Assembly: GCA_015680685.1 (NCBI GenBank)
Contig: MNCI01002561.1
Location: forward strand, 6,087-70,086
Direction: 5' to 3'
Length of the DNA: 64,000 nt
Source: Gnetum montanum
Taxonomy: Eukaryota > Plantae > Gnetophyta
Both the position numbers and the translations under genes were made by a program. The notes beneath the pieces are model-generated. The model was given only the letters and a program-made list of their open reading frames with translations. It did not search any database and was not told the origin of the DNA. This document shows, one piece after another, positions 2,190 through 47,263 of the stretch. How positions within the stretch are numbered: position 1 is the stretch's first letter; each line of letters begins with the position of its first letter.

Positions 2190-2796
2190 TGTGACATCCT
2201 ATCCTTGGATGTCATGGAAAATTTCAAAATATATGATACATTAGACATTATGCATACAAAGAAAATATACCAATGCAAAATATAAGTGATATTCAACATT
2301 ATGTATAAAGGAAATAATAGGAAAAATGTAGAAAAAAGAAAGAAAAAAATGCTTTATTGATACGGAAAAGTGAATCCAGGTCATGCTCTAAGAGTGTTCC
2401 TTGGGGTTTTTTTCCTTTGGCATCTATCCCCTAGAGGCAATCCATCATTGCCACCATGGTTAGGCCTATAACCTGGCCAGAAGGGATGGCCAGTCCACAT
2501 CCTATCCCACTTCACCTAGCTTCCTATGACTTACATATACCAACTCACCACCCCATGACTTGCCTGTACTAGTGTTGCCATTCCCCATGTTTGCATGACC
2601 TCCAACCTTGGGTATAAATTCCTTTGGTCAAATCCCCAAAGGTTACCTCAAGAAACACATTTGTTATTACAACATGCCCTTTCAGGTCTTAATCACAACT
2701 ACCCTTTCTAGTCTTGTTAATATAACAATAAAATTTGGTATGAAGAGAAACCATCTTCATTAGGCAACTACATCATTTTGGAATGGGGGTGTGACA
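2190..2796 (-). repeat. 3' LTR (607 bp) of CCR4 element copy 1
   Basis: TG...CA termini, adjacent PPT, reverse-complement homology to 42790-43361. Confidence 0.87.
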
Positions 2797-3204
2797 ATCT
2801 ACCTCCCTTAGGTTTCATTCGTTCTCAAATGAGTCCACATTCTTTATATTTTTCTAGCTCCAATGCTTTCTTTTATGATCCTGTGCTCTAGTAATTTGAT
2901 TTATCCTTTGAACTTGAAGTTATTTCTTTCTTATTCTGCAAATAAGATATATTTGAGAAGGATTATATGGAAAATTAATTATTACTATCTTGATACCTCA
3001 TTTTCCAAGATAATGATAAGAAGTGATTTAGAGATCTCTGAACTATCAATCACTAGTTCTAACCAGGGTCACACAATGTGCAACTTGTATATGGTTATCC
3101 AAGTGGAGGCAGGGAAAATTCTTTACTCCCAAATTTCATTTCCTTATATATTTTATTAATCTAATTGAAATATAAAATAGAAAATGAATAAAATAATAAA
3201 ATCA

Positions 3205-4472
3205 TCAAATAAAAGTAAGAGTGAGATACTTCTTGACCTTGATCAACCTTATGAACTGATGGAAGTAATTATAATTCTACCATAAGTGGTATGTGATCAG
3301 ATGATCTTGTTTGGGATGGCAAAGCTTGATCTTGATTCTTCTCAACTTGTTCTTTAGAAATCAACTCTAGTAACTTGGTAACTTGAAAGAATTGGGCATC
3401 ATACCAAATATAGTCTAAGGTCTCATTGAAGAATGTTGTTGATTCATCCTCATTAATCATTGCAGAGTAATTTGTAAATTGTGGTTCTTGATGAGTGCTA
3501 TCCATCAACATAATCTATTCTTGAATTCTAAAATATGATTGATCTACTAAAGATTCAAAGTAAGCAAAATATGCACTGACATATGGAATCACATGTTGAA
3601 TTGATGAAAACATCTTTTTCAAGTCAGGTTCATCTTCCAAGGATTTCTTTACAAATCCATATTTTAAGAATTGATAAATGCTACTTCCAACTTTTGAATT
3701 GAAGTATCCACAAAGAATAAATGGAACTAGATTAGTATAACTTAGGAATAACTTCTTCTTGAAACTTTCTTCTATTTTCTTAATCAAGCATGCTTCTTGA
3801 TAAATTCTAACATCTAGATATGTTGGTTTGGTAATTAAATATGTGTTAACCATGCATACACATCTTCCTAATAGATGAACTTTTAGAATCACTGCAAGGC
3901 TATGTGATTTTTATAAAATCTTAATTGTTCTTTCTTGTCCATCTCTTGAAGTTCTAGAATTTCAAAAATCATATTTTCTAAACTCCATTCAAATCTTTGT
4001 ACCAATTCAAATTTGGATTCTTTATAAAAGATCACACAACCATACATGTTGTAATTTCTACAATATGCTAATCTATACAACTCAAAATAACTTTCATAGA
4101 AACTTTTTGCTTATAAATACGACTGTCTCCCATATTTTCTAAATTTGGTTGGAATTGGTATAGAAATTCCCATGCTAAGACTTCTTGTAAGCTCAACATA
4201 TTTGCATCCAAATCTTGTAATTTTTCTAAAATTCATGGGTATCAATATTCATGTCAATCCAAGGCCCATGATGGACATAGAAAATATCATTTCTCACTTA
4301 CTAGGGATCTTGCAACATGTTGTATATTGCAACTTTCATTCTGATTCTTGGATTCTTGTCTAGATCATTTCTCTTCATGAATATCATACTACTTATTGAA
4401 ATAAGATTTTGTGTCTCCATGTTTTTTTGCCTTATGTTTTGATTGTAGGATGGATTAATATATCCTTTTCAT
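3205..4472 (-). pseudogene. Intronless CCR4/nocturnin-family EEP-domain deadenylase pseudogene (~420 codons)
   Basis: Ordered family motifs across broken frames: MKVAIYNML, LCPSWAL, DANMLSLQEV, YGCVIFYKESKF, NTYL, ILCGYFNS (GDFN), SAY, EPQFTNY, TLDYIWY, PSQTRSSDHIPLMVEL. Possible ATG at 4472; end position inferred from copy 2. Confidence 0.88.
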
Positions 4473-5162
4473 GATGGTTGAAGATTGTTCTATTTCTTAA
4501 ACTAATTCTCCAACTAATACATCAACTGATCTTTAACTAATTCATCAACTAATAATCAACTACATCAACTAAATAACTATATTATCTATTTTTATAATTA
4601 TATTATCTAATTTTAGTAATATTTAATGACATCATATAATAATATGTAACTATATTATCTAATTTTACTAATATAAAATTACATTACCTGATTTTTAGTA
4701 ATATTTAACTATATCATTTTTTATGACCTTTCTACCCCCCTCGAGAACACTAACTCTCGCAATGTAACTAATAAGATGCCATAGCAATATTAAGACTATC
4801 TATAAGGGTTATATACTAAATCCTAAAGTCTAAAATGTTGAATTTATAATATCATTGAATTATAGGGTGGCTAGATGATAAATCTGACCTCACCATTGAG
4901 TCTAAAAGGGTGAAAATGTTAGAAATGACTATTTCTATTTTGAAAATGGACATCATATGCTCACGTTGTGTGAAAATTAAACTTTTGAGGATCTCAAGGA
5001 ACCATATTAGGCAAGGATTAAAAAATAATTTTTGGGGTTCCTTCAGATGGATCTGACTCCACCATTAAGCTTAAAAGGTTGAAATCTATAGGAAACGACT
5101 CTTTGTTGACTGAAAATGGTTTCTGAAATAAAAAATTATGGCTTTTGGAGCCTAAGTACTTC

Positions 5163-5240
5163 GGTGTAAAAAAAAAAGACTTCCTCACAGGTCACCCATC
5201 CCAATTCTACTCTAAAGCAAGCACACTTAATTGTGGAAAT
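5163..5240 (-). pseudogene. 5S rRNA-derived fragment (3' ~75 nt containing Pol III box A, IE and box C)
   Basis: Minus strand ttccacaattaagtgtgcttgctttagagtagaattgggatgggtgacctgtgaggaagtc aligns without gaps to plant 5S CTCCGCAGTTAAGCGTGCTTGGGCGAGAGTAGTACTAGGATGGGTGACCTCCTGGGAAGTC (recalled consensus); box C GGATGGGTGACC is exact. Confidence 0.85.
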
Positions 5241-5439
5241 TTATCTTTGTTGCTACCACTATGCCAAAATCTAATTTTGAAAACTAGTTTTGCAAGTTCT
5301 TAATTTAAACTAATAGTTTAATGGCAAAAATTTGAATTTTTAATTAATTGATAGAAATTTCAAAATTTTCCATTAGTTGATGAATAATTGAAAATTTTCC
5401 ATCATATAATAAAGAATTTGATGGTTTTTAGCTACATTG

Positions 5440-5670
5440 GAGACATTTAGTGGTGGTGCTAGAGGTAGTGATGGGTGGCACAAGAGGCAATGATGGGTAG
5501 CACAGAAGGCAGTGATGGGTGGCACAAGAGGTAGTGATGGATGGCACTTGAAGCAATGATGGGTAGCATTGGAGGCAGTGATGGGTAGCATAGCAGGTAG
5601 TGATGGGCAACATAGGAGGTGGTGATGAGTGGTGCAAGAGATAGTGATGGAAGGTGCAGAAGGCAATGAT
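5440..5670. repeat. 22-bp minisatellite, ~10 degenerate copies
   Basis: Unit agaggtagtgatgggtggcaca recurs at 5461, 5483, 5505, 5527 and onward. Confidence 0.85.
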
Positions 5671-7352
5671 TGACAATGTTATAGGTAGAGATGGGTAGTG
5701 TGTGTGGTAGGTAATGAAAAATTTGGCAAGGGTTTCAATGGTAGGTGAGGGTTTGTGCAGGCATGGATGATGTAACACCAACCAAGGGTTTCATCACAGT
5801 GGTAAGTAGCGATGGTAGAGCAAGGCATGGCATGTGGCGTGCTATCACAAGGAGTGGATAGTGGCTATCAGAAGGCTAGGATGTGGCATGTAGCAGTGGC
5901 TTTTTTAGTAGGCCATGCAATTTTTGTGAGGGCCTGCATGGCTAGTGCAAGGGTCTACATGTCTTTTTTCAGGACTTTCATGGCTAGTGTAGCGGCTTGT
6001 AGTTGACAATGGAGTGGTTAGTAAGTGGCGGCAACCACAGAGGCAAGGATGACCCTGTTGTAGTAGCATGTGGATCCGTGGTTCAATGGTAGCATGTCTG
6101 ACTCTAGATCAAAAGGTTGCATGTTTGGAAATAGGGGTGGCATGGGTGGCAAGGCTAATGGTGGTAGCAGAGGCACATTGGCATGGGATTAGGCAAGTAG
6201 TGGCATGGTGGGTGGGTAGGGGGTCATGGGTGTGGGCTTTTTTTTTTTGTTTTTTAGGGCCCTTTGGCTTGGCCCAAGGTCCAACCCTCTAGAATCATAG
6301 CCTACTAGTGGCCTGGTTGTTGCTTGCTAGCAGCCTGGCCATGGCTGGTAGCAAACCTGGCCATGGTTGGCCATGGTTGGCTATTGTTGGTCATAGGCCT
6401 AGCTGCAGTCCAATATTTTTTTAATATTATATATATATATATATATAATTTTTTATTTTATTTTATTTTCTAAGTGTTTAAATAAAAATCTTGGGGGCTC
6501 AGGTTTGAACGTGAGACTTCCTGGTTTTTTTTTCTAAACTTTTTATTATCATTTTATTTCACCTTGCCTCACTGGTTGACTTGTTGTTTTGGCTTATGAC
6601 AAGGTAAGGGTTTGGTATGGGTAAAAAATAATTCTAGATTGATTCCTAACCCTAAAATTTTGACAATTTTTTTTTGAAATAATAATTTAATAATTTAATA
6701 TTATTTTAATGCATGCATAATGAAAAACTTCAAATGTCAATATCTCCCAAATTGTAAGTTTGATTGAGACAAAGTTTGTATCTTTGGAATCATCCCAACA
6801 AGAACTACATGTTGGACATAGTTTTAGGATTGAAAAACGAAGTTGAATTTTTTAAAATTAAAAGGAGAAAATTAGCCTATTTTGTTGAACTAAAATTTCT
6901 AGGCTGACATTTGGTAACTTGGAATCTTCTAGATTTCTTGGATAGTAAATTTCAACAAAACAAGATCAATTTATGTCATGGTTACTAACTTTATTAAAAT
7001 ATATTTAACAAAAACCCTAATCAATTAATAATTATAGTATTAAGATGGATAAGAGTTACCTGGATTGATGTATCATCATCTTACCAACATCTTTTGTAAT
7101 TGATGAATTTTGATGAGGTGTGATCAAATCTTCATCGATTAATGATATTCATGAGAGAAATTTTGTTGGTTGGTAGGATCTAGATGCCTAATTCATTGTT
7201 TGTGAAGTCAATGGAAATAGATATTCTGACTTGCATCATAAATATAAGGTACATCTAGTGATGATCAATGGCATTCGATGTGTTGTGGCTTCAAGGTTCA
7301 TCATTAAGTTCATGCTATAGTTTGGCCCATTGTTTTGAATGGTCCTTAGGTC

Positions 7353-7625
7353 NNNNNNNNNNNNNNNNNNNNNNNNNNNNNNNNNNNNNNNNNNNNNNNN
7401 NNNNNNNNNNNNNNNNNNNNNNNNNNNNNNNNNNNNNNNNNNNNNNNNNNNNNNNNNNNNNNNNNNNNNNNNNNNNNNNNNNNNNNNNNNNNNNNNNNNN
7501 NNNNNNNNNNNNNNNNNNNNNNNNNNNNNNNNNNNNNNNNNNNNNNNNNNNNNNNNNNNNNNNNNNNNNNNNNNNNNNNNNNNNNNNNNNNNNNNNNNNN
7601 NNNNNNNNNNNNNNNNNNNNNNNNN
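7353..7625. other. Assembly gap (273 N)
   Basis: N run; hides the PBS and most of the 5' LTR of copy 1. Confidence 1.
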
Positions 7626-7707
7626 TTGTTAAGATAACAATAACATTTGTTATGAAGAGACACCATCTTCATTAGGCAACCGCATCATTGGGAATGGGGA
7701 TGTGACA
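7626..7707 (-). repeat. Visible end of the 5' LTR of CCR4 element copy 1 (rest hidden in the assembly gap)
   Basis: Close match to 2714-2796. Confidence 0.85.
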
Positions 7708-9844
7708 ACACCACATCACATACATCTCCACTATCATTTTCATGCCATCATACCCACTCCATGTCATCAAAGAACACATGTACCACATAATCATAGGTCA
7801 ATCATAAATTATATTATTCATGCTATGACTCATAAACCGATACCATCATTTACAGCTTACCCATGTGGTCACTAGAATATCAACACTTCATGTACCATGT
7901 GAAACATTATCATGAGTACTTATGAATAATCATTTCCTATAGGTAGTTTATTAGTATTTTTTCTCCAACTAGTACTATGTTCTGTCAACCTGTGATCCAC
8001 AATTACTAACCTTCTAGAGGACTCACTATAGGGATGAACACACCTATGTCATGTACTAGCTATAGGGACGAACACACCTATGCTCTCTCACTCTCAGGAT
8101 GAGGCCCGAGATAGGATCCTCATTAATGCATCATAGTGTGGGTCAATTCAAAACTACCTCTAGGATGCCTCAGCACCAACTAGTCCATACCTTTATGGTA
8201 GCACCACTTGTCAAGGATTTCTACAAGTATCATTGAGAACACATGTACAACACTAGGCTAGCATAAGCCAACACATGTTGCAAGCACAACACATCAAAAA
8301 TAAACATAATATGACCACATATATCCACATCTGATAGTCAAATTTGTTTCATGAGAACAATACCACAACTTGGTAAAACAAAATATTGCACCACAACCAT
8401 AATTAAACTACATATTGTTCTGTAAAAATAACCACTATTACAACCTCTAAGATGATATATGTCAAAAGAAAAAAAAAATTCCATGATTATAACGTACAAC
8501 TCAAGTTAATCCCAATGACACTTATTTCAACTCAATTGGACCCCTAGAAGCAAAGTTATGTGTGTTTAAAGTTTAATTAAATGACATAATAAATAATAAT
8601 ATTTAGTTATAGTGAGTGATAATTAAAACTCCTAGAAACTCCTACACAATGATAGGTCCCTAAAATATAATACTCAAACCATACCAATCTTATTGACATC
8701 ATGTCTAATATTCCACAAGCGCACATCATATCATACATTGCATATTTATGATAAATAATTTGCACCCAAAATTATAAAATTTCAGGAAATCTACAAAACA
8801 ATACATTCAAACTCAATCCTTTAACTATCTACCCTACATGCCCATATCACATGATCATATACACTTATTTGATATAAAAATATTGAAAAAAAGGCAAGGA
8901 CAACCTACCAATTAAAATTGTTGTAATAGAAAGTCTGAAACACACATGAAATCTTTAAAAATCTGACAAAACTCCATTTCACTCCAAATAAGTTCTGCAT
9001 TCACTTAGATACAACTATAATAATCCCAAATCCAACTTTAGTAAAAATAAAAATCCATTCACAAAGCTTAAAATTCAAGAAAAGAGTAGAATTAAAAAAT
9101 GAAAGAAAACTAAAGAAACGATGAAGAAGAAGCTCCAATATGATTTCTTTTATACAAGAACATAAAAAAATGAAATCAACTGTTATGGATAAGAAAAAGA
9201 TGGTGGAATAATAAGAAAAATATGTTTTATTTTTAAACAAAAATTATTCTTGAAGCATATACTTTAAAATAAAAAGAAAGATTCCTTTCCCATGTGTATT
9301 TCATGTCACATGCAAAAAACTATTTTTATTTTTAATTTTAAAAAAAAAACTAAATATTTTTTAAGTATATTTCTTTTATTCCTCTTCAATTAATACCTTG
9401 TATTTCAAACATGTATAAAAAACACACTTGGACTTCAAATCAAAATTTGTTTGAACTTATGATATCCATATCAAATGCTCTTCACATGTACATGCTAAAA
9501 TTACATATAAGTTTCACACAATATAGGGCTATAATTTAAATGCATAAATAATGAAATCACACATAAAGCATAAGTACATATAAAATAGGTGCTCTTGTAT
9601 CCCAATGCAACGTCCTTGTGAACCACAACACCTATTTAACACATCACATAGGGCTAGTGTATATAATCATGTTAGTTAAGCATGTAAAGAAATCATAATC
9701 ATAAAATACAGACTAAAGCATCATAATCTATAAAGTGTGATCATAACAAACTAACTCATCCCTAATAATCCATCGAGACTAGTTATGTAATGTATAAATA
9801 ATAATCATACTTTCATGGCAAAGGTCTCTAGAAGGGATATAACA

Positions 9845-9976: not shown

Positions 9977-12549
9977 TATAGCACCTAAAACATTTGGTTT
10001 CTTGAAAACCAAAAATTCTAGGTTGAATAGTTTTAACCCTAGATCCCAAGGGCCTCCAAGAAACAAGATCCAAGGCACTTTTTATGGTCTTGTTGATCAC
10101 CTAGGGAAATAGGAAGTGTAAAAAAGGTAAATAATTTGAATAAAAATGCAAGTCTAAATGAAAATAAAGCATAGAAATTAATCTTAAAATAAACTTGCAC
10201 AATAAATGAATCATAAACTTTATTGAGAACAATAAAATTATTGCAAAAGTAGAGTTTAAATATGTATAAGTTTTATATGTGAAGGTAGTAGGAGTTTCTC
10301 AGATGAAGCTTGAAGCCTATTAAAGCTGGTAGATTTTACTTTGTAGTTAGCCTCATGATCCAGATACTTCCCAAATTTGCTTGCTAAAGTCCTTGGAGGT
10401 TTTTAGCTTAGATCTGTAGTGTTGGTAAATAAAGGGGGAAGGGGTGTTTGACTCTTGATGCTATGGAACTATAGTGAGAGTATCCAATTCCTAGGTAGTT
10501 TTCAATCACTACAAAAGTCTTACAAAATGCTACAGGCTTTTTGGTGCTCAAGGTTGCAAAAGGGTTGTGAAGTTTGCTTAATAGAAAGAATTTCCAACTA
10601 TGGAATTGATCCAAAGTGTTTGAGATTGGCATTTATAGTTCTCATGGTTGGTTTTTGGCTACAAATGTTTGCCATGATTACTGATAGATTGATTTGATTT
10701 GTAGGTGTGACAGGCCATGACTTCCAATGTAGCTTTCCATTTATGGAAATTTTTGATGCACCCAGGCCACCAAAACCATGCTGGATACCATAAATAGTAA
10801 ACATACTTTTCTAACTACATTGGCTTCACCCATCTACACTACCCTCATGGGGATTGTGATAGCATCTTGGGATCCATGCTAAATTAATGGAGTAACACTA
10901 GAATTGTTGGAGCAATGTTAGCCTTGTTGGAAGAAAGAAAATCCCAACAACTCCAACACTAGCTTCATGAAGTAAATAGAAATCCATCAACTCTAACACT
11001 AACCTTGTGACATCCACACTATCTTTTGTGATAACTACTCTAGGCTTTGTTGGGAAAATGAAAATCCAACACCATCAACATTGGGTGTAGGTGGTTTCAA
11101 CGTAGTTTTGGTTATGCCTCACAAAAAACCCATGAAAATGCCAAATTTGATAGTTCCCATGGCATTTTTAGCCTTCCCAAGCCAAAATATAGATATGATA
11201 TAAATTTTTCCACTTGGGAGGTGAAGCTATGATAACTTATGAGGTAGTTTTTAGCCATAAAAGGTTATGGTATGTGAGATTGTATCTCATGGGCTACAAA
11301 CCTTAAATTTTATAATGAAAATCTAGCCTCAAGTGTAGGGGTGAAGGTTACAATACCAAAGGGTTGAAACATGAATTTTCTTGGTGGTGTTTCATTGATT
11401 CCTCTTCATTGATGTTTGGAGGATTGACCTGAGAAACATCAACAAAGAATGTAAAAAACCACTACAAATCCTTCACCAATGGTTGCTCTCCATGCTTGAT
11501 TTAGTAGTTGTTGAATAATGTCAAAGAGTGCTTGTGATGATGGGACAAGTGTTATGCTGAGATGATATCGATTAAATTCTATATTTAATGATAAGAGAGT
11601 GGTCACAAGAGTTAATAATGAGTTCAAAATGTTGACATCATGGCTACAGTATGGTAGTGACACTTTGGCTAATCAATGTGGTTTTTGTGCTTTGTGCTTT
11701 GAAGTGTTGATCACTCAGTAGTACTTTTGAGGAACCAACACTTCACTCCAAGGTTTCTTTGATTATTAGGCTCCCCCCTTTTCTTGTTCAGAGCCTTTGG
11801 TTTATCTTTTGCTCTTCATTGATCTTTCAACTTCTTGGAAATATGCTTCCTCAATTTTTTAGGGTGAAACCTTCATTGGGTTTCATTCCCAAGAATGGAT
11901 TTGATTTAGTTTTCCTTTTGAATGAGATGTGTTACATTCAATGGACTTGATGGTGGAGCATGATGAAGGAAATGTCATATGATCACAATGCATGAGTGTC
12001 AAACATTGGACATTATTCATGTTCAAGGTAAGAAAGGTCTTGATTAGGTGATGAGATTAAGCTTAAGGAATGGTAATGAAGATGATGTAAAACAAGCACT
12101 CTTGGTATAGCAAGATAAGCATACCAACTCTTGTAGATTAATTTCACATGATAACTTGCCGTTGTGATGAGTTATACCTCCAAAATGACTTTTGGGCTTC
12201 ATCTTGCAAGCACAACTCTAAGACAACAAAAAAATAAGACAAAAAAAAACATATTGTTATAATACAATGAATAGGGCCATACATGATAACTAGTAGAACA
12301 AGCCACCATAGGTTACCATTGTTACAACATAGAAAGATCTACACAATGTGAATTAGATTTACAAAGCCTAAAGTTTATTCATTTTGCAAAATAGAGAGGA
12401 ATTAAGAGCGATAAGTGGAGATCATGCAAGCTCACTTATTATAAAGGCCATTATTGTCAATGATTCATTTTTTCCTACATAGATGATTATGTTAAATATA
12501 ATAAGGCTTTAGGTAGGAATGGTTGACCAGATTGGCCAATTCATTCCCA

Positions 12550-15500
12550 TCCATGTTTGCAACTCTGAAGGCTCCATTGTTGTAGACCTTGGTGATTAGA
12601 AAAGGCCCCTCCTAGTTGGCTAAGAACTTATCTGCATGCTTGCAGATAGCCTTGATGACCAAGTCTCCTTCCTTTATCTTTTATTTTTTCAATTCATGGA
12701 AATGTTGTTGCTTCTACCTCTCTTGGTATCGCTTGATGTGAGCAAGCATTTGTATCCACTACTCTTCTACCAAGTCTAGGTTAATGGAACCTACAATTCA
12801 ATAGGTAAAATAGCTTCAAATTCATAAACTAGGTTATATGGGATTACACTAGTTGCAATTAGATAGGTTGTTCTATAGGTCTAAAGTATGTGGACAAGTC
12901 ACTCATGCCACTTGTGTTTGTTATTATTTAGCATAATTTTAAGCATGTTTATAATGGCTTTATTACTAGCTTCAACTTGTCCATTGGCTTGAGGGCAATA
13001 TGGTGACAAAAAAAAAATGCTTGATGCATAGATCTTGACAAAAGGTTTACATTTCTTGGCTACTAAATTCTGATCCATTATTTGTAACTATAGTCAAAGG
13101 TATGCCAAAATGGGCTACTATGTTATTGAGTATTAATCTACAAACTTGTTGAGATGTTATCTTCCTTAGGAAAATAGCTTCACCCAACCGTTATAAAGTA
13201 TTTGGTTGTAGTAATAATGAAGTTATGCCTTACAAAATACTTAGGTGTTATAATGTCAAGTCCCCACCATTGAAATGACCAACTTATCTAAGTAGTATAT
13301 AATTCAGTTGGTGGCATGTGTATCAAGTTTTCATGTCACTAGTAGATGTGACAATTTTTAACCTTCTATAGGAATTAATTTTCTATATAGCTATGATAAT
13401 AGCCTTGTTGCCTAATTTTAGTATCCATGGCTATAGTTTCTATATGTCCTCCACATATGTCCTCATGACTTGCTCAAGGACTATTCAGGCTTTAGTTTTT
13501 CCTAAGCACACTAATAATATACCATCATAGGATTATCAACATAATGTATTATCACCTAAAATAAAATACTATTTTAATCTTTTATGTATAATGTACTTTT
13601 GAGAAGTAGTCAGGCCTTGTGAAGATTCATCATGCATTAGGTAAAACTTGATATCATATATCACTTGTTTTGAGAAGTAATGTTGATAGAGGCTATAGAG
13701 TCACATTTAGTGTTATGTGTGATGGGAATAACACAAGTTACAATTAAGAAGGATAACTTGCTAAATACATTAGCTATCACACTTAGGGCTAAGGTCACAA
13801 TGGCATCTACTAACATGTTCTTGGTTCAGGGTATATGTTAAATACCAACATCTATAAATTATTGCATTGGTTTCTTGCCTAGATCACAATAAGGTTGAAA
13901 CTTTTTGGCTTGACATGCATAAACCTATGTTACTTGGTTAATCACAAGTTGAAAATTACCTTCTATCATCAACCAAATGATTCCTTGATCATGGAATACC
14001 ATCATTCCCTTGATCAATCCTTCATACTTTTCCATGTTGTTAGTACATGGGAAATCAAAATGATAGGTGAAGGTCTGGATTTGACTAGAAGGTGATATTA
14101 TGATGGTAGCAACACTATCCCCATAGGGGTTGAGGCTCCCTCAAAGTACATAATTTCCTCATATCCCTTAGGTACTTCACTAAAAATGTTGACATGCTCA
14201 TCAGGGAATTCAAGATTAATGGTTGCATGGTCTTCTAATGGGAAAATGGGAAGTTACATGGCTATAGCTTAGCCTTTTGTTGAAGCTTGGGATATGTAAT
14301 GGAGGTTAAACTCAACTGTTATGGCTTTCCCATAGGCTATACGACTACTTTCATAGATATTGGTCATTATAGCTCTAAGCATGTTATCCTTGCAAATGAT
14401 ATTAAATTGGCTCCTAAAGAGGTATTATCTTCACTTCTTTAATTAGAAGACTATGGCTAGATAATAATTCTCCACTTTAGTGTATTGGGCCTCATAAGCA
14501 ATTAAAGCATGACTTAGGTAGTATACCGGTAGCTCCACTTCATCGTCCTATTTCTAATAGAGTAGAGAGGCAATGGGCATGTTGGATATAGTAAGGTAGA
14601 TGTAAAAAGGCTTATCCTTTTGTAGCAGATAGATCATGGCTAGTTGTGCTGACTCTTAATTAAGGTTTTCAAAGATTTCTTAGCATTGAGCCATCCACTC
14701 ATAGCATACTCTTTTCTTAAGCAAGTGTTGTATGGGTTGTAATTTATCTATAAGCCTAGAAATGAACCTATGAATAAATCGTAATCTACCTTGCAATCCC
14801 CGAAGCTCCTTAAGGTTAGTTGGTATTTCCAAGTTGGATATGAACTTAATCTTATTAGTATCAACACGTATTACTACTTTGGATATTACAAAGCCAAGCA
14901 TCTTACTAGTTTTGATACCAAAAACATACCTCTTGGGATTAAGCCTGAGTTCATATTTAAAACATCATTTTAGCACAAGGTTAAGGTAATGTGCATGGTC
15001 ATTGGATATGTTTGATTTAATTGCTATATTGTCAAAGTATTCATTAATAAATCCTAGCATATAATCACTAAAGATATATATCATGACTCATTGGTAAGTT
15101 ATGCCTACATTCTTAAGACCAAATGAAATCATTGTGCAATAAAAGGTTTCCTAAGGGATCATTAAGGTTTTTAAAAGTTGATGCTTTGGGTTAATCCTAA
15201 CTTGGTTATATCTCAAGAATCCATCAATGAAGGATAACAAGGCATGTATAATCATAGTATTGATAAGTTGGTCAATACTAGGTAAAGGAAAATCATCTTT
15301 GATAGTAGTCTTATTCAAGTCTTAGAAATCAATAAAAATGTGTATAATCCCATTTTTCTTAGGGACTACCACTATGTTGGATACCCATTCCATGTAATTG
15401 ATAGCTCAAATGAAATCAACTTGATATAGTTTCTTGATTTCATCACAAAGTGCTAGGGCTAAATTTGGCCTACCCTTACAAACTTTTTACTTAACTGGTT

Positions 15501-15780
15501 TGATACTAGGGTCAAGTATGATGTTATGTTACACTATGCATGGGTCAAGACTTAGCATACCTTCATATGACTAGGAAAATACCTTAATATTATCTTGAAG
15601 AACCTTGGTGATGTCTTGAGCCTATTGAGTTTCAATGAGGAAATTAATTTTAGTGTTTTTTCCTCACCATTGTGTGTCATGATAGGAACCTCAACTGGAG
15701 AGTTCTTGGTAATGTTGCCAACCTTTAGGTTAAAGGTTTTAACTAGGTTTTCTAGCCGTTCAAGAGGTTTTTCTATCAAG
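12550..15780 (-). pseudogene. pol remnant: RT, RNase H, additional (archaeal-type) RNase H, integrase
   Basis: KDDFPLPSIDQL and FGLKNVGITYQ (RT); ELRGLQGRL (ORF 14680-14901); MYFEGAS and HIP*TKNMLVDAI (aRH, 13790-14160); HEDICGGH, YCPQANGQVEASNK and *EGPF (INT). aRH between RH and INT is a Tat hallmark. Confidence 0.87.
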
Positions 15781-27489: not shown

Positions 27490-30450
27490 GCAAATATCCT
27501 GCNCAAAGCTTCTATCACACATAATCAACCATTCCTTTGTAACACATCATTACTATCCATAGATGATCTACTACCTTAATTCTTGATACTATGAATCATG
27601 CTATTTTTGCTGTTGAATCTACTCTTGCAAATATGATTGGATCATCAAGCTATTAAGTTTACTATTCATCCTTATCAATTCATAAACTACTTTATTAGTC
27701 TTGCCATGCATACATTTAATAGTGAAATCAAATTTAGCAAGCAACTCCACCCATCTATGATAACACAAGTTTAAATGAAGCTAACTCAGAAGATATTGGA
27801 GGCTCTTATGGTTAGTCCAAATAGTAACATTTTTCCCATATCGATAATTCTACCAAATCTTTATAATGAATACCATATCACCTAACTATAGATGCTACAT
27901 AGGATATCTAGTTTCATATGGCCTCAATTGACAAGATGCATAAGCCACAACCTATCCATCCCACATTAACACATAATCAAATCCATCCCTTGATGCATTA
28001 TTGCTAACATCGTATGGGTGTCTTGATTTAGAATATACTAACACTAGAGAGTAGTTACTAATCTATGCTTCAGCTCATTAAATGTAGCTTGAAATGCTAA
28101 GGTCCAAGAAAAACTAGTCTCCTTCCTCAAAAATTCAGTCATTGGAGATCCTATGTGAGAAAAATGTTCCAAAAACCTATGATAGTAACTTGCTAATCCT
28201 AAGAAGCTATGCACCTCTCCTACTGAGTGTGCTATAGGATAATCATGAATGACTATAAACTTTACAAGATCCATAAAGATACCAAATCTTGACATCATAT
28301 GTCTCAAGAACTCAATATTTTACTACCAAAATGAATACTTGGATGGTTCAGTGTATAGTTGGTACTCTCTTAAAGTCTATAATATCATTTGCACCTACTT
28401 TGCATGAAGCTACTCATCAATGGAATACATCAATATATCATCTATGAATACAATTACAAACTGATCTAGAAATGATTGCATCACACTATTCATGAGGTGC
28501 ATGAAAACTATGGATGCATTCATTAATCCAAATGGAAGCACTAGAAACTCATAATGGTCATATCAAGTTCTAAACACTATCTTTGACATCTATTATTCAT
28601 GAACCCACATTTGATGATACCTAGAATTGAGATCAATATTTAAGAATACATGAGCTCCCCAAAGTTGATCAAACAAGTCATCAATATGCAATAAAGGGCA
28701 TTTGTTTTTCATAGAAACTTGGTTTAGCTACCTGTAATCCATGCATAGTCACAAAATTCCATCCTTCTTTTTAAAAAATAGCACTAGTGCATCCCACAGT
28801 GATATACTAGGCTAAATAAGCCCTTTTTTCAATAATTTCTAAAGTTGGATTCTTAGCTCTACTAGCTCTGCTAGAGACATCTTATGTGGAGTCTTTGAAA
28901 TAAGCTCTATACCATGTTTAACTTTGATTTCAAAATTATTCCCTTGCCTTAGCAACAAACATAGTAATTCTAACTAAAATACATTATGAAATTCTTGAAA
29001 CATAGGGATTTGATCTATCTTCATGATATCTATTTTATACACTATGGACATAAATCATCCATGCCCCTTTTGAAGCATCCTATGATACATTCAAGAGGAG
29101 AACAAATCTAGGCTTATAGACCATGGATGAGTTTTTATCTTAATTGGAGCATCATCAACTAATGGTAATCTTAGGAGCTTTTGTTGATAGTCTAAACTAG
29201 CATTGAACTATGATAGACAATCCATCCCCAAAATTATATCATATACCCCAAGATCCATAACATGAAAATTATTAACCCATTGCACATATTTCAATTCTAA
29301 TGATACACCTACATACACTTGATCAACTTGAGTCTCATGACCCCTAGTAGAAGATACTATCAACCTAGGAAAAAGATAATGACATGCAAGAGCTACATGA
29401 TGTGTAATACTAGGATCTACAAAAGAATGGCTAGTAACTAGATCACTGTGTTTGGCTGCACATCCAATAGCTGGTCCATTATGGTGTACACCAATCTTTA
29501 GGTCCTTTGGTGCACTCCTCCTAGTTGAGCAATAGGTATTTGATGTTTATTCTAAATTGGAGGTCATTGTGTTTTGTCTCTACCTCCTTTGCTACTACCT
29601 ATCATTCTCAAGCACTCCCTAGCTTAATATCCTAGCTATCCATATGTAAAAAAATCTTGGCAATCCCTCTATAGATGGTCAAGCCACCCAAATCTATAAA
29701 AAATAATAGATCCACAAAGAACTCAAATAGTAGGATCAAAATCTAGTATTTGGAGCTCACCTCCATGTTCATGAACCTACTTAGAGAGGCTACGCCTACC
29801 TTTGAATGTTAGTCCTCTCTTCTACTCTTGTCACCTCTCTTCACGAGCTACATCCTCTTGTGGGAACCTCTCTAAATTCATAATAATTATTCTAGTCTCA
29901 TCATAGGATGTCAATCTAAGAGGTAATATCTGATCCTTTAAATATGGCCTCAAACCTCAAACAAATCTATTTGCTCATGCCTAAGCTTCTATATGCATAT
30001 GTGGTAAATAGCTATTGAGCTTAGAGAAATGAGCATCATACTCTACCATAGACCAAATATCTTGATACAAATAGTATAACTCATTCTCCTTTCCCTAGGA
30101 ATATTGGGTAAACATATAATAGGCTCTAAAAGATGTTAGAAAATCATCCCATGCCACCTTTTGGCTAGTCCATCCTTTGGCATGATCTTTAGTCATCGAC
30201 CAACACCAAGTAGTGCAATTCAACTAATATATTGCTAATCGAGTATGCTAAACCAATGAGTAGCTCATAAAATCATAAGTCTTTTGCAACTTCTACAACC
30301 ACACTATAGTTGTAGTATCATTCTTGGTGCCATTAGATTTTGAATATCCTAACTTCCAAAACTACTTTACCAGTTTCCTATTAATAGGCTTCCTATTTGA
30401 ATCTCCTAAGCCTCCACTACAACAACTACTTCTAACTTTCTTAATAGTGG
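27490..30450 (-). pseudogene. gag-pol remnant (gag, protease, RT, RNase H) of the chromovirus element; integrase core missing
   Basis: RT motif [13 protein letters not shown] near 28430-28460; ORF 28044-28307 VHSFLGLASYYHRF...FNELKHRL; RH motif near 27800 (WTNHKSLQYL). Many stops and frameshifts. Confidence 0.85.
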
Positions 30451-30689: not shown

Positions 30690-31052
30690 TGTAACACTGC
30701 ACCTTACTACACCTAGCTAGGGTAGAGGGATGTTTAGGATTGCAAGTAATAATACAATGGAAGTATGATACACTGAAAGCTAATAGTACATAAACCACTA
30801 TATATATATATATATTATGGAAGGTCATACTACACAAAAATCCATGCTAAACCAAGGACTAAGCATACATTTCATTTCATAAAATTACATGTCTTTACAT
30901 AAATTGAAAATCTTTACTGCTCTCCCAAGATGCATAAACATGAACAACATCATATAACTAAGAGTATAGTGTGGGCCATAAAAATATGAATAGTTCACAA
31001 TATTATGCAAGGATATATACATAACCAATCCTTGAAAATTTTCCTCTTCTCT

Positions 31053-31088
<36 letters not shown>

Positions 31089-36420: not shown

Positions 36421-37684
36421 CAAGCACAATGCCAGAAGCATTATAAAAAAGTATAGTGATTCCTATTTTTTAACAGACTTTAGACCATATCTTCCAAATT
36501 TATAGTATTCAATATGCACAATAGGATGTAATCATAGTTGATGAAAAAGATGATAAAATTCTAGATGAGGATAAGAAAAACCTCATACAAGCTAAAAAAT
36601 ATGATCTTAATAATCATGGTGATAACTAATTTCTTAAATAGTTATTAATATTGATTGTAATTCTATTAGGGATTAATTTACTTTTGAGAAACTATTAAGT
36701 TTCCCTAAATAGCTTGTAAATATAAATGTATATTTTTATTTTGAAATAAAAAAATATATTATCTTCTTGGAAATCTACTAACCTTAAATTTTATTCTTAA
36801 TTGTTGGCAATAGTTGATGATCACGAAACATTTCACATTCAATAATGTATGTAAAATATGTTAAATTATCAAACTAATCCTATTTAAAGCAATTGACATT
36901 TCTTTCAAATGATCATGGATAAGGATTTACATGATCATCACATACTTATCTAATGGTGCCATCACAAAATTATTTAACTTCTAACCTATAATGATAATTA
37001 AATATATATTGCTGCTAACACTATTTAAGGTAATCAAAATTTCTTCTAAATAATCATGAATAAGAATTTACATGATCATCACATACTTGTCTTATGGTAA
37101 AATTTGAAAATTATTTAACTTGTAATCAATAATGATAATTAAATATATATTGATTTGTAGAGCTTTATTTAAACATATAATAATTAATTGATACATGATT
37201 ACATGTATAAAGATATACTAAATTTATTAAAGTATAATAAAAAAATCTACAGATCTTTCAAAAATTTCATTAATTAATTATAACTTCAAGGATAAATAAT
37301 GTTCATTACAACATGATAGAAGATACTGACTAGAAGATTATGAGTAACTACTTTTTATAATAACATACTAATGTTAGAAAACAGATTTAAGATTCATGGT
37401 GTAATGTCTCCATTCCCAAATGGTGCTATTGCATAATGAATATGATGCCTCTTCATAACAAGTGTTATCATTATCGTAACAAGACTCAAAATGGCATGTT
37501 GTAAATAAGACCTGAAACGGTGCATTGTAATCATGGACATGTCTCTCAAGGTGACCTTTGGGGGTTTTACCTAAGGCATTTATACCCAAGCTTAGAGGTC
37601 ATGCTAGCATGGAGTTGTATTTTCTGTGATTATTGCTGAAAGTTCAATTTTTGTATGGATTATTTCTGCTAGCATGCTATTGTG

Positions 37685-38110
37685 ATTTCTGCAATATGCT
37701 AATTTGTATGGATTAAAAGAAGAACTTTAACAAGAACCTTTTTGCTTATAAATACATATGTATCTCATCTTTCCCAAGTCTAGATAGAATTGGGATAGAA
37801 ATTTCCATTGCAAGACTTCTTGTAGGAATAAGACATCAACATCCAAATCTTGTAACTCTACTAAGATGTGTGGGTATCGATACCCATGCTAGTCCAAGGC
37901 TCATGATGGACATAGCAAATGTTGTTTCTCACTTGTTAGGAATCTTGTAAGCATGGTGTATGTTGCAACTTTTATTCCTATTCTAGGATTTTCTTTGGGG
38001 TCATTTTGATTCATGGGTATCATACACCTTGTCAAAATGAGATTTTGAGGCTCCATGTTGTTCTACCATGTGTTTTAATTGCAAAAAAAATTGATATACA
38101 TCTTCTTGAC
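37685..38110 (-). pseudogene. CCR4-like 5' fragment in an inverted segment
   Basis: Colinear with 4050-4475 and a reverse-complement match to 41230-41540. Confidence 0.8.
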
Positions 38111-38739
38111 CATTTGAAGATAGTTTTGTTTCATATCTTCTTGACCATTTGAAGATAGTTTTATTTCATCAACTGATCCTCCAACTAATTTTGGTAATAT
38201 TTAACTACATTATCTAATTATTAAAAACCTTTCTACCCCATTTAAGACACTGACTCCAATAGTGTAACTAATGACTGTCTAGGATTTAGTGACATTAAGG
38301 CTATCTACAAAGGTTAAGCACTAAATCGTAACATTGCAAAAGGTTAAAATCATTAGTTCCAACATTTAAATTGTTAGGCATGATTAGTTGCCCTAAGTTG
38401 TCAACTTTTAAGGTACATTTGATGATGTGATCAAATTATTGGATGCTTGGATGATAAATCCTACCTCATCATTAAGTTTAGAAGGGTGAAATATGTTGGA
38501 AATGATTATTCATATGTTAGAAAAAAACATTGTATGCTTGCATTATGCTAAAATTAAGCTTTTGAGCATCTTAAGGGACTATGTTGAAAAAGGTATAAAA
38601 ACTAATTTTTGAGATTTCATGGAACATATTTGACTTCACGATTCTATCCAAAAGGTTGAAATCTATAGGAAAAAACTCTTTGTTCATAGAAAGAGACTTA
38701 CAAAATCAAAAGTTATGGGTTTTGAGGTCTAGAAGTTTT

Positions 38740-38815
38740 GGCATGAAAAATGAGACATCTTGAGAGGTCATCCATTCCAATACTACTCCACGATGAGTGT
38801 GCTTATTTGCAAAAT
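38740..38815 (-). pseudogene. Second 5S rRNA-derived fragment
   Basis: gaggtcatccattccaatactactc...gtgcttatttgc matches the reverse complement of the 5S box C/IE/box A region; same context as 5163-5240. Confidence 0.7.
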
Positions 38816-39384
38816 ATTTATCTTATTCCTACCAGCATGCCAATTTTATTTTTCTTAAAAAATTTTCACTTTTCTAATTTTAAACTAACATTCTTCTAAT
38901 GAAAATTTTAAATTTTCTGTTGGTTGATAGAAAAATCAGAATTCTTTGATAGTTGATGAAAACATTTTTCTATCATTCAGGCTAGGGAAATTACAGTAGT
39001 AAGAACATCAATAGCACTATGGGGGTACTAGAGCAATGAATTGGATGAGCCAAAAGAGTGCACTAGTGGGCAAGGTGCACCAAGAGAGGACAACGGCAGT
39101 GGACAATACTGGTACGCTAGGGAAGCTTGACAATGGTGATGATGATGACATGCTAAGAGAGTGCTTTATAGGGGCCAACAGAGCCTAGGTAGCCTAGTTG
39201 GCCCTTATTAGGGCTTTTGAAACTCCTTGTAGGGCCTATGTAGTCTAGGTAATGCCTACATGGCACTCACAAGGGCCTATGTAGCCCAGGCAGGGCTTGA
39301 ATGATCCACACAAGGGCTAGCATGGCACAAGCAACTAGCATAGCATAAGTGGCCAACATGTTGTTAGTGATGAGGTTTTTAGCA

Positions 39385-39780
39385 ACACCTGAGGAGGTGA
39401 TAATTTTTGGCATTAGTGGTATCTAAGGTCCACTAGAGGGTATGATGATCATTGCTACTAGTGATGTCCACAATGCACTAGAGGGGACAACAATCCTTGG
39501 TGTTAGTAGTGTCGATGGTGCATCAGAGGGCGCTATGATCCTTGATGCTAGCAATGTTCCCAATGCATTAGAGGAGGTGAAGATCCTTGATGTTCATTAA
39601 AGGGAATGATGATTCCTAGCACCATTGATGTCCACAAAGCACTAAAATGGGTAGTGATTCTTGGTGCCTACGGTGTTTGTGGAGTGCTAGAGAGGGTAGC
39701 GATTCTTGGTGTCAATGATGTTTGTGAAGTGTTGGAGTGGGCAAAAATTCCTGACATCAATGATATCCGTAAATCACCAT
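39385..39780. repeat. 45-bp degenerate tandem repeat
   Basis: ca(c/t)tagaggg-like starts at 39431, 39476, 39521 and 39566, with further units to ~39780. Confidence 0.7.
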
Positions 39781-41229
39781 GGATGACAAAAAATTAATGG
39801 ATTTTTAGCACTAGCAATGACAACTATGGTAGCAATGGTAGCATAGGTGATGGTGAAATCAACCCACACAATAGGTGATGAGAAATTCAAAGGCAACACA
39901 AATAGTTGATGAGGGTTTTGATGAATTTCATGGTGGACTTTATGGACAAGGGTATTTTGTGGGTAATAGTGGTACAAAGAATGTTATCAGGTAAGGGTTT
40001 CATTGAGGCTAGGTAGAAAGCACTAGTTGGCATCATAGTGGTGATAGCAATGGCCTTTTTTGGTATAGCAATGGTAGGAGGTGAAGCTTAGGTGTAGCCA
40101 TAGGCACGACAATAGGGTAGTCATTGATGGGCTTACATCGCCTCATGGAAGGCATTGCAAGCCTTTATAGTGGCTACACTGGCCCTTGTAGGGTCATTCA
40201 ATAGGAGGAAATGAGGTTAGGAACAAGGCAAGGTTTTGTTAGCAAAGGCACAACAATAGTTAAGGTGCAGTAATGGTGGTAGGTGTCAAGGTTTGAGAGG
40301 TGCAGTGTGGGGTCAGGCTACCCCAATATGGGCCAGCATGACCCCCATGCAGGGCTATGTGGCCCTTGATGGGTCAGTGTGACTCTAGGTACAGTGACAC
40401 GACCTAGAATTTTAAAATTTCATTATTATTATTATTATTATTATGAAGGTAGCGGTTGATGTAGCAACATTGGTTGGAGTAGGTAGAGTGGTGACAAGTA
40501 GATGGTAATCAATGGTGCTTGAGGTTTTATGTAGTGTGTGAAGTAGTAGAGGTGGTGGTGATGGTAGTGCATGTACCAATAGGTGAGAAAGGGAAAATTA
40601 CTTGCTATAAGAACTAAATGAGTAGTACTATCTAAGACATTTTCAATGATACTAATTTCATCACAATCCGACTTATGGTTTGGGTGATACAATGTTTCTT
40701 GGGTTGCATGTAATTTAAAATTAAAAATTCTTTTTTATTTTATTTTTAAAATTTAAATTTAATTTTATAAAAAAAATAAGGGTGAGAGAGCATCAGGTCA
40801 TGGGTTCAAACCTAAGCCTCCCTCCTGATTTAGGAAAAAGCATTTTAATTTGACTTATTAAAAAACAAATCCTAACCCTAAGGGAAGGCTACAACCCAAT
40901 GGTCAGCCTGCATTGCCCCTTTTGGTGCACCATGGACACCACCAGCACTAGAAATTGCTGCCCCTTCTAGTGCCCCATGTACACTGCCTACATTGGAAAT
41001 CATCACCACCTCCAACACTATTAAAATTGCTATCCTCACACCACTAAACAAGGCTACATGAATCCTAGCAAAGGTAGCATAGGCCCTGCTTGGGCCATGT
41101 TGACCCTAATAAGGTCCATGTGAGCCCAAGATAAAATAAAATAGTGAGAGGGATGCACAAGCCTAGTGCCATAATTTTCCACTAGCATTGTAGTTCACCA
41201 CTACCTACCACAACATTGGCTAGTGAAAA

Positions 41230-42382
41230 ATCCAAGAATGAGAATTGAAGTTGTAATATATAACATGCTTAAAAGATCACTAGCGAGTAAGAAATAATAT
41301 CTACTATGTCCACCATAGACCTTGGACTAGCATGAGTATTGATACCCATGCATCATAGTAGCATTAAAAGATCTAGATGCTAATGTCTTATGCCTACAAG
41401 AACTCTTACCATGGAAATTTCTATACCAATTCCAACTAGACTTAGGAATGATGGGATATAGAGAAATTTATAAGTAACAAGGTTATTATGGAAGTTCTTC
41501 TTTGAGCCATATAAATTACTGTATTGCAAAAATCATAAGATGGATGTTTGAATAATTTTTTTATAAAGAATCCAAGTTTTAATTAGTACAAAGATGTGAA
41601 TGGAGCTTAGAGGATATGATTTTTGAAATTCTACAACTTCAAGTGATGGGAAAGAAAGAATGACCAAGATTTCAAAAAGGTCACATAACTTTGGTAGTGA
41701 TACTAAAAATCTAGTTATCTAAAATATATGTATGTATGGTTAATACACATTTAATTGTCAAATCAACATGTCCAAATGTTAGATTATGTTAGGGAGCATA
41801 TGTGATTAAGCAAATAAAGGAATGTTTGAAGAATAAGTTATTCCTAAGATATACTAATCTAGTTCCATTTGTTCTTTGTGGAGACTTCAATGTGAAAGTT
41901 GGAAGTAATGTTTATTAATTCTTAGAATATGGATGTATAAAAGAATCTTTGGAAGATGAACTCGATTTGAAGAAGATGCTTTCATGAATTCAACATATAA
42001 TTTCATTGGCTAGTGCATATTTTGCTTCTTCAAATCTTCTATAGATAAATCAGATCCCAGAATTTAGGAACAAATGATGTTGATGGATAGTACTCATTAA
42101 GAACCATAGTTTACCAATCACTCTACTATGATTAATGAGGATGGATCAAAAACATTCTTCTTTAAGACTCTAGATTATATTTGGTATGATGTCAAATTAT
42201 TCCAAGTTACCAAGTTACTAGAGTTAATTTCTAAAGAAGAAGTGAAGAAAAATCAACATCAAGACCTTCCATCTCAAATAAGACCATCTAATCATATACT
42301 TATGGCAGAATTACAATTACTTCCATCAATTCATAGGGTTGATCAAATCAGAAAGTATCCCATCATTACTTTTTATTTATAA
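41230..42382 (+). pseudogene. Intronless CCR4/nocturnin-family deadenylase pseudogene, copy 2
   Basis: Motifs DANVLCLQEL, NTHL, VLCGDFNV (41872-41895), TLDYIWY and RPSNHIL; colinear with copy 1. Confidence 0.88.
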
Positions 42383-42789
42383 TCTTATTATTTTCTTCAT
42401 TTTTTAATTTACATTTTAATTAGATAAGTAAAATTTCTATGATAATGCAAGTTATAAATAAGAATTTACCCTAACTTCACTTGTATAACAAGATATGAGT
42501 TGCACTTTGTGTGACCTTGGTTAGGACTAGTGATTGGTGGCTGGTAGATCTCTAATTCACCTCTTGTCATTATCATAGAAAATGAGGTAAGTATTAATAA
42601 ATTAATATTTAAATTCTCATATATTCTTGTCACATATATTTTTTTTGCGGAATAAGCAAGAAACAATTTCAAGTTTAAAGGAGAAATCAAATTATTGGAG
42701 CATAAAATCATAAAAGAAGTACTAGAGCTAGAAAATGAATAGTGAATGTGGACTTGTTTGAGGACAAATGAAACCTAAGGGGGGTAGAT

Positions 42790-43361
42790 TGTAATGTCCC
42801 CATTTATAAATGGTGCTAGTACACAATGAATATGGTGCCTCTTCCAAATAGATGTTATTGTTATTGTAACAAGACCCAAAAGGGTGTGTTGTAATTAAAA
42901 CTGGAAAGGGTGCATTGTAATAATAGGCATGTTTCTTGAGGTGATCTTTGGAAGTTTGACTGAAGGCATTTATACTTGGACTTAGAGGTTATGCTAGCAT
43001 GGATTTTTGGATCCAGTAAAGGTTAGTAATAGGAGGTGGATGTAGTGGGATAAGAAGTGGACTAGCCATCCCTTCTAGCTAGTTATAGGCCTAACCGTGG
43101 TGGTAGTGCTGGATTGCCTCTATGGGAAAGATGTCGAAGGAAGAAAACCCCAAGGAACACTCTCATAGCATGATCCAAATACACTATTCCACATCAATAA
43201 AGCATTATTTCCTATTTTCTTATGCATTTTCCCTATTATTTCCTTTACACATAATGTCGAATGTCACATATATTTGATGTTTCTTACACTATTGTCTTAT
43301 GACTAATATCTAATATAACATATATTTGATGTTTTATATGACATATGGGAGTGATGTCACA
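42790..43361 (+). repeat. 3' LTR of CCR4 element copy 2
   Basis: TGTAA...GTCACA after the PPT; homologous to the reverse complement of 2190-2796. Confidence 0.87.
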
Positions 43362-46300: not shown

Positions 46301-47263
46301 AGAGATTTTTTGAGTTTTTACACTTTGCTTTCTTTTCCTTTAATAACATAACCTTCAATTTGGTAGATGTATACTTCATCTTTGATGTATGTATTTAGAA
46401 ATGCTATGTTGGCACCTATTTCTTAAATATTTAGATCTTTATGTGTTGCTATGAAAAGAGTGAGCTTGATGCTTTCAAATCTAGTCATCAGTGCAAATAT
46501 TTCTTTATAGTCAATGTATTTTCTTGAATCCTTTTATTACAATTCTTGCTTTAGATGTTGTGACTTCTCCTTTCTTACTATGCTTTGTTTTATATAAACA
46601 CTTATAATCAATAATGATCTTGTCTTTTCATTTTTCCACTAATTTCAATGTGTTATTTCATAGGATGATATTGTACTCTTTATCCATGGTTTTTTTTTCC
46701 AAACTTTTAATTTCATGGCTTCATTGACATTTGTTGGTTTACTTGAGACTGTTAAATATGTCATATTTGTAATATTGTGAGATCTTGTGATTCTTCATTT
46801 AAAATATGTATCCAACATTTTAGTGCAAGGATGGTCTCTTTGAATCTAATTTTTTTTCTATTTAAAAAAATGACTTGTACTAAACTTTGTCTCATCAAAT
46901 ATAACATCTCTTAAAATGTGTCATTTCTAATTTATTAGGTTGTAGCACTTGTATCCATTGGTGTGTGAATCATAACCAAGAAAGATACATTTCTTTCCTT
47001 TATATTCAAGTTTTTGAATGAATTATTTTAGGATCTTTTCATCGTAATGACACTCAAATATTCTCATGTGACTTACATTTAGAATTTTTTCATATAGAAC
47101 TTCATATGCAGATTATTATTTATTATTTTTTATGATGATTCGATTAGAAATGTAGGAAGTAGCTATGATGGCTGTAATTCAATATTGGTTAGGTAATGAG
47201 GCACTCTTTTGTGAGCATTCTGTTATGTCTTGTATTTTTTATTTATTTTAGCTATTTAGATCT

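Follow-up and report, generated by a model that had tools for sequence, protein, structure and literature searches.

Two insertions of one LTR retrotransposon family

The window, by which we mean the whole 64-kb stretch of Gnetum montanum DNA analyzed here, is full of decayed retroelements. Two of them belong to one LTR family whose internal region carries a segment derived from 5S rRNA and an ORF of the CCR4/CNOT6 type (Table 1). Read along the minus strand, element 1 begins with the start of the 5' LTR and an N gap, continues through AT-rich and GC-richer repeats with the 22-nt array to the 5S segment, and then passes through two units of about 150 to 170 bp, the ORF and the polypurine tract into the 607-bp 3' LTR. 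It sits within an LTR of another family, which it splits. The N gap (7353-7625) covers the rest of the 5' LTR together with the primer-binding site, and if this LTR is whole, the true length of the gap exceeds its 273 N; in element 2, the primer-binding site was lost with the truncation of the 5' LTR.

Table 1. Coordinates of the two elements and of their features in the window
Feature	Position	Strand	Remarks
LTR retrotransposon element 1	2190..7707	-	5-bp target duplication ACACT/ACACC; from self-BLAST and junctions
3' LTR of element 1	2190..2796	-	607 bp, TG...CA; polypurine tract at ~2797-2812 before it
5' LTR start of element 1	7626..7707	-	first 82 bp; 89% identical to 3' LTR start
CCR4/CNOT6-type EEP nuclease ORF, copy 1	3269..4472	-	decayed (stops, frameshifts); start approximate
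Two diverged ~150-170-bp units between 5S segment and ORF	4858..5160	-	common to copy 2; nowhere else in the window
5S rRNA-derived segment, copy 1	5169..5237	-	5S nt 45-113; nhmmer E 4.3e-11
A box equivalent, copy 1	5220..5231	-	5S nt 51-62; ungapped register to 5S; box limits assumed
Intermediate element to C box equivalent, copy 1	5192..5212	-	5S nt 70-90; canonical C box as given in bioRxiv 10.1101/2023.07.14.548913
T10 run, copy 1	5168..5177	-	putative Pol III terminator; replaces 5S nt 105-114
22-nt tandem array, GC-richer internal region upstream of 5S segment	5461..5650	.	element 1
LTR retrotransposon element 2	37400..43361	+	target duplication CATGG/CATGA; internally rearranged
LTRs of element 2	truncated 5' LTR 37400-37616; 3' LTR 42790-43361	+	from self-comparison and junctions
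CCR4-type ORF, copy 2, 5' part	37667..38135	-	minus-strand arm of element 2
5S rRNA-derived segment, copy 2	38749..38810	-	5S nt 48-110; nhmmer E 6.2e-5; then T5 at 38750-38746
CCR4-type ORF, copy 3	41220..42339	+	PF03372 E 0.0013; Angel2, PDE12 and CNOT6 matches; no upstream region or 5S segment

Both elements have direct TG...CA LTRs, the 5' ones being incomplete owing to the gap in element 1 and to truncation in element 2, and in both a polypurine tract precedes the 3' LTR. Within each element the target duplications agree at four of five positions, with a C/T or G/A mismatch. The duplications differ between the elements; therefore, these are two separate insertions, and finding two of them in 64 kb suggests a high copy number of the family. 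The copies have diverged from each other by about 20 to 30%. No gag-pol was seen in the three-frame translation of the readable part, element 1 being partly hidden by the gap, and Pfam returned no match for one frame of 7053-7352.

Element 2 has one target duplication around two opposed internal arms, which share the ORF start and are 77 to 79% identical, an arrangement such as an inverted duplication would give if it accompanied insertion or closely followed it. Its minus-strand arm holds the 5S segment and the ORF start (copy 2); in the plus-strand arm, the GC-richer repeats run directly into the ORF (copy 3), and the 5S segment with its surroundings is missing. The 5S segment is thereby retained in two of the three ORF-bearing segments, so its presence in copies of the family, as the sequence-only reading supposed, is borne out.

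The internal regions of both elements also have telomere-like heptamer boxes (6647-6655 and 40872-40881) near a motif that resembles a tRNA T loop and is no better than chance. The B-box-like tRNA motif near 40800 and 6500 was dropped, given no Rfam tRNA match and two consensus matches against 1.39 expected. ARAGORN found no tRNA genes.

Identity and extent of the 5S-derived segment

Reference 5S sequences came from at least 154 metagenome loci, collected with a motif taken from the copy 1 segment. With matches near locus ends dropped, 189 of the motif matches listed had a full 120-nt context, and among these 168 were full-length 5S (132 distinct) and 21 were partial. An nhmmer profile of the 132 distinct full-length plant 5S genes among the matches listed recognized copies 1 and 2 as the sole significant matches in the 64-kb window (next match, E of 0.39) and found none in the LTRs at 2190-2796 or 42790-43361. 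The 5S origin of the stretch at 5163..5240 is thus confirmed, as is its recurrence at 38740-38815 as part of a repeat family, the two copies lying in separately inserted elements. Scored outside the search motif against an L088-type reference, copy 1 ranked first (26/37) and copy 2 second (21/37) of about 128,000 window positions; with L142 as the reference, copy 2 was not outstanding (18/40).

Copy 1 is identical to the L088-type 5S at 47 of 60 positions over nt 45-104, and a weaker likeness continues to about nt 118, at 5164. The match had been described as covering only box A, the intermediate element and box C, which proved too narrow. In neither copy was there a match to 5S nt 1-44 (9/44 and 14/44). 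The segments correspond to the 3' portion of 5S rRNA genes, from nt 45 to about nt 118. Closest to both copies is a minority 5S type (8 of the 132 references listed), which we take to be the conifer type: on average, one copy or both agree with it at 54.1 of 63 positions, and with the other 124 references at 49.6. The sequence by itself would thus point to a probable gymnosperm host.

The check with the Rfam 5S covariance model (RF00001) that the sequence-only reading proposed came out negative, an outcome which that reading had listed as refuting it. This model was not among the whole-window scan results, in which the one match at E up to 1 was not 5S; on small regions, copy 1 gained 12.6 bits (E 3.5 to 9.3) against a gathering score of 38, and none of the five Rfam matches around copy 2 was 5S. 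Three full-length reference loci scored 112 to 114 bits, and four other partial 5S pieces reached only 18 to 27 bits, so missing significance says little where only a fragment is concerned. We rejected a functional 5S rRNA gene at copy 1 on the basis of its bit score and the unmatched nt 1-44.

Partial 5S pieces in several other settings were seen among the collected loci. One (L002:560-625, the same as L024) comprises about nt 41-93 with a T run behind it; it occurs on two contigs of 30 to 42 kb, where the surrounding DNA is repeat-like and not rDNA, and its flanks are unrelated to the Gnetum 5S module. L084 and L128 have partial 5S cores in an AT-rich context, L084 with termini that we take for those of a Cassandra-type LTR. 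In L019 and L050, a 5S pseudogene has an inverted 5' quarter.

Sequence change within the 5S segment

Between the copies, the 5S segment is identical at 39 of 60 positions (65%), compared with 105/147 and 232/320 (71 to 72%) in the flanks. The segment is richer in methylatable C/G than the flanks, in a window of 33% GC where CpG stands at 0.14 of expectation and CHG is depleted too. C>T or G>A accounts for 8 of 13 changes in copy 1 and 12 of 19 in copy 2, a majority as expected of decay after insertion. By three-way distance, the common ancestor of the copies lay about 0.10 from 5S, and over nt 45-107 the closest 5S type is still matched by one copy or both at 55 of 63 positions. Both copies are decayed and probably inert.

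As for the boxes, the region of the intermediate element and C box (5190-5212) is identical between the copies at 20 of 23 positions, and damage is seen in the copy 2 A box, where 8/13 positions are shared. Sites with changes other than C>T or G>A fell within narrowly drawn boxes in 1 of 10 cases, these boxes covering 40% of the length (P = 0.046, two copies only); with wide limits, 6 of the 10 lay inside (P = 0.49). Because the box limits were assumed and the test was made after the fact, this box effect is a hint only. At nt 65-67 both copies differ from 5S. This is the MotIE position, where Cassandra elements are described as drifting too (bioRxiv 10.1101/2023.07.14.548913).

Oligo-T runs and the fate of a putative Pol III transcript

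In copy 1 a T10 run and in copy 2 a T5 run occupy the same place, in lieu of the 3' strand of 5S helix I, and G-to-T changes common to both copies form this oligo-T in the old 3' stem. The sequence-only reading placed a T run of 10 right after the C box; the run exists (5177-5168), but it begins at 5S nt 105, 14 nt past the core C box. Between the 5S segment and the ORF there are a further 10 and 11 runs of at least four T in the respective copies (2 and 5 runs of at least five). Pol III stops at oligo-T, and its RNAs are uncapped. A Pol III transcript would, by this layout, end after about 110 nt. The predicted fold of such a short RNA was no better than those of shuffled sequences (z of -0.07 and 0.83).

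These data bear on whether, as in Cassandra, Pol III might read from the 5S promoter through the CCR4 ORF or the whole element, a role that had been suggested on the sequence alone. The 5S segment does lie on the ORF strand some 0.7 kb upstream, which agrees with the earlier description (691 nt from the ATG at 4472). Cassandra, moreover, is reported to be transcribed from its own 5S promoter (PMC10886601). Against this stands the anatomy. Transcription of CCR4 by Pol III is unlikely because the adjacent oligo-T and 10 to 11 further T runs precede the ORF, and because the promoter lies outside the LTR, it could not yield a full element RNA as in Cassandra; an uncapped product argues in the same direction. 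We therefore regard read-through as largely refuted and very improbable.

In both copies a TATA-like hexamer precedes the predicted start by about 27 to 28 nt; we did not count it, the region being about 75% AT.

A CCR4-type nuclease ORF as cargo

For homology searches, the cargo ORF was read with X at stops. PF03372 gave a weak match in one of two ORF pieces, and structure matches (11 sequences) named Angel2, PDE12, CNOT6, CNOT6L, yeast Ccr4 and Nocturnin. An ORF profile run against 1.84 billion representatives returned 1,061 matches with E values no higher than 0.001, of which plant CCR4-like proteins were the best. In a second profile search, nine divergent proteins of 327 to 537 aa ranked above canonical CCR4, with a query that itself included three of the nine and three close cluster members. 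Like the plant CCR4a/b (CNOT6) poly(A) nucleases of family PF03372, the ORF has EEP homology over the whole nuclease domain; it differs from them in being nearest to the nine divergent proteins (best identity, 39%) and not to canonical CCR4. In a quick tree, the copy 1 piece grouped with the nine (SH-aLRT of 100); the tree of the copy 3 piece gave no firm placement (83/34). Each piece forms a very long branch.

The nine proteins come only from Logan, JGI and ENA contigs. These proteins (P0005-P0007 and P0190-P0195) and their clusters make up a divergent plant CCR4-like clade of single ORFs with a shortened N-terminus. The contigs are metagenomic ones, of up to 40 kb, and short ones from Logan; among the members listed, none is from NCBI or UniRef. 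Retrocopies lacking introns are one possible explanation of these proteins, living relatives of the element cargo another.

All ORF copies in the window are broken, and each presumed catalytic motif is kept in at least one of them. The raw dN/dS of these broken copies is 0.48. Context-matched shuffles gave P values of 0.016 to 0.12 for copy 1 against copy 3 and 0.83 for copy 2 against copy 3, and one of six non-coding controls in this test reached 0.08. A word-seeded protein search with the C-terminal piece of copy 1 yielded no related sequence among 24 candidates. Viral contigs gave no related locus by motif and none of 11 stretches by protein, and none of 244 stretches from metagenome contigs was related; prokaryote genomes contributed only 16 distant bacterial EEP loci, at 25 to 30% identity.

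Relation to known 5S-promoter elements

Cassandra TRIMs resemble the Gnetum elements in being LTR elements with a 5S core of about 70 bp over box A, the intermediate element and box C and with drift just before the intermediate element (bioRxiv 10.1101/2023.07.14.548913). However, their core lies in mid-LTR, and they are 565 to 860 bp long with no coding cargo (PMC10886601, bioRxiv 10.1101/2023.07.14.548913). The Gnetum core, in contrast, is internal, absent from the 607-bp LTR and followed by a T run, and the elements measure at least 5.5 to 6 kb with a CCR4-type ORF, whereas Cassandra/Ajax-type miniatures are under about 1.3 kb. That the layout departs from Cassandra, with the 5S piece internal and coding cargo present, had been recognized correctly from the sequence. 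Ajax TRIMs of nemerteans (TRIMp3) share the retention of only the promoter part of 5S, the lack of a predicted 5S fold and a 5-bp target duplication, but they are 421 to 434 bp long, carry the piece in their LTRs and live in animal hosts (PMC10886601). We rejected assignment to Cassandra/Ajax (TRIMp3): the A/IE/C core is present, but it is not in both LTRs, and the elements are neither miniature nor noncoding.

SINE3 elements likewise use a 5S internal promoter and have a diverged 5' part (PMC10886601), but the Gnetum piece is not the 5' end of a free-standing element, and oligo-T follows it. Plant SINE3 is not reported (PMC10946416). SINE3 membership was also rejected, since the window holds the module inside the LTR family and nowhere else.

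The Gnetum elements share with gene-capturing, non-autonomous LTR elements their LTRs, polypurine tract, tandem repeats, host-derived intron-free ORF and lack of visible gag-pol. We take this class to be what are called LARD-like or retrogene-bearing elements. Full-text literature searches, with subscription journals, Repbase and supplements outside their scope, found neither an internal 5S piece nor a CCR4 cargo described for any LTR element; the layout appears undescribed, and its function is read from two decayed copies.

Origin and possible role of the 5S segment

We tentatively prefer, at a probability of about 0.45, a single capture of the 3' part of 5S, likely by a reverse-transcriptase template switch, with the piece likely kept as a self-contained Pol III/TFIIIA-TFIIIC module that does not transcribe CCR4. 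One such event at the RNA level would have brought the piece into the element, and a capture route described for plant LTR elements is abnormal switching of templates among RNAs packaged together (PMC13317346). In active copies, TFIIIA/TFIIIC would bind the A, IE and C boxes. The product would be an RNA of about 110 nt with a non-5S 5' head, ending at the adjacent T run; alternatively, the bound complex might be the only output and would form a chromatin boundary on the upstream side of the cargo gene. Expression of the CCR4 ORF itself would fall to Pol II. The sequence shows a 5S origin, sense orientation, a position between the LTRs and, in two separately inserted elements, an oligo-T at corresponding places. 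In favor of the module are the 5S match in both copies, the LTRs, polypurine tracts and two target duplications, the common ancestor about 0.10 from 5S, the hint of spared narrow boxes, the MotIE drift, the shared G-to-T changes and the T runs ahead of the ORF; against it are the two copies only, both about 20 to 30% diverged, the lower identity of the segment than of its flanks, the loss of the box effect with wide limits, the damaged A box in copy 2, the unremarkable fold of the short RNA and the ORF copy 3 segment that lacks the 5S piece.

Almost as likely is a neutral passenger, that is, a 5S fragment (nt 45 to the 3' end) copied by chance shortly before amplification and never functional. 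Any 3' fragment of such size includes the boxes, the similarity extends past them, and we saw neither an overall excess of conservation nor a box effect with wide limits. The ORF copy 3 segment without the piece is in keeping with this. 5'-truncated 5S pseudogenes are known in Ephedra (PMC3692318), the 21 partial pieces make up part of the 189 full-context matches among those listed, and about 400,000 captured gene fragments are reported per gymnosperm genome (PMC13477047). A passenger, however, would not lead one to expect that the non-deamination changes avoid the narrow boxes and cluster at the MotIE position, or that shared transversions build the oligo-T. The segment starts at nt 45, immediately ahead of the A box, a 5' boundary that fits both readings alike; it needs no selection, because a natural break of human 5S rRNA at about nt 46 is known from LINE-1 chimeras (PMC13174262).

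The independent capture that was proposed earlier is plausible, and given two copies, descent from a SINE3- or Cassandra-like element is its alternative. A smaller 5S-promoter element would then have inserted in the ancestor of the LTR family, the 170-bp units representing its body. The core is the same as in Cassandra and Ajax (bioRxiv 10.1101/2023.07.14.548913, PMC10886601), the MotIE position has drifted, and Ajax and Cassandra are themselves proposed to stem from SINE3 insertions (PMC10886601). We nevertheless judge this origin improbable: neither the rest of the window nor the loci collected (at least 154) hold the flanking modules, comparison of the flanks with three other partial-5S loci gave no convincing match (12 comparisons; lowest P = 0.045), and the T run stands directly behind the boxes. 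A 2024 review, in addition, reports neither a 5S SINE from plants nor Cassandra from gymnosperms (PMC10946416).

Beyond the captured Pol III module, a wider and rather doubtful extension is that an abundant, non-autonomous gymnosperm LTR family co-opted a 5S Pol III promoter with a new terminator, together with a deadenylase-family nuclease directed against host RNA control. The 5S unit would then serve as a small-RNA unit or as a TFIIIC chromatin barrier inside the element. The LTR elements described with a 5S promoter, Cassandra and Ajax, are miniature and self-transcribing, with the promoter in the LTR (PMC10886601). An internal, terminator-closed 5S module, if true, would add another transposon use of the Pol III machinery, as a boundary or for a small RNA, and the co-option, if true, would amount to a 5S-promoter retroelement of new layout in a plant group without reported Cassandra. 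A transposon-borne CCR4-type nuclease would be a candidate factor acting on host RNA or on that of the element. Copies of such elements would also yield false annotations of 5S rDNA and CCR4.

Other retroelements in the window

A second LTR family, with LTRs of about 2.85 kb, is present at 1502-2184 plus 7713-9844 and at 30690-33540. Behind one of its LTRs lie a primer-binding site and decayed gag-pol, with RVT_1 at 28500-29099, and by its motifs the family is presumably chromovirus-like. Further decayed pol remnants, with approximate limits, lie at ~12400-15700 and 50000-53100 (both minus strand), 44377-46370 and 58551-61504; among these we take one with an extra RNase H-like stretch to be Tat-like, another to be Athila-like, and pieces arranged as inverted repeats to be Copia-like.
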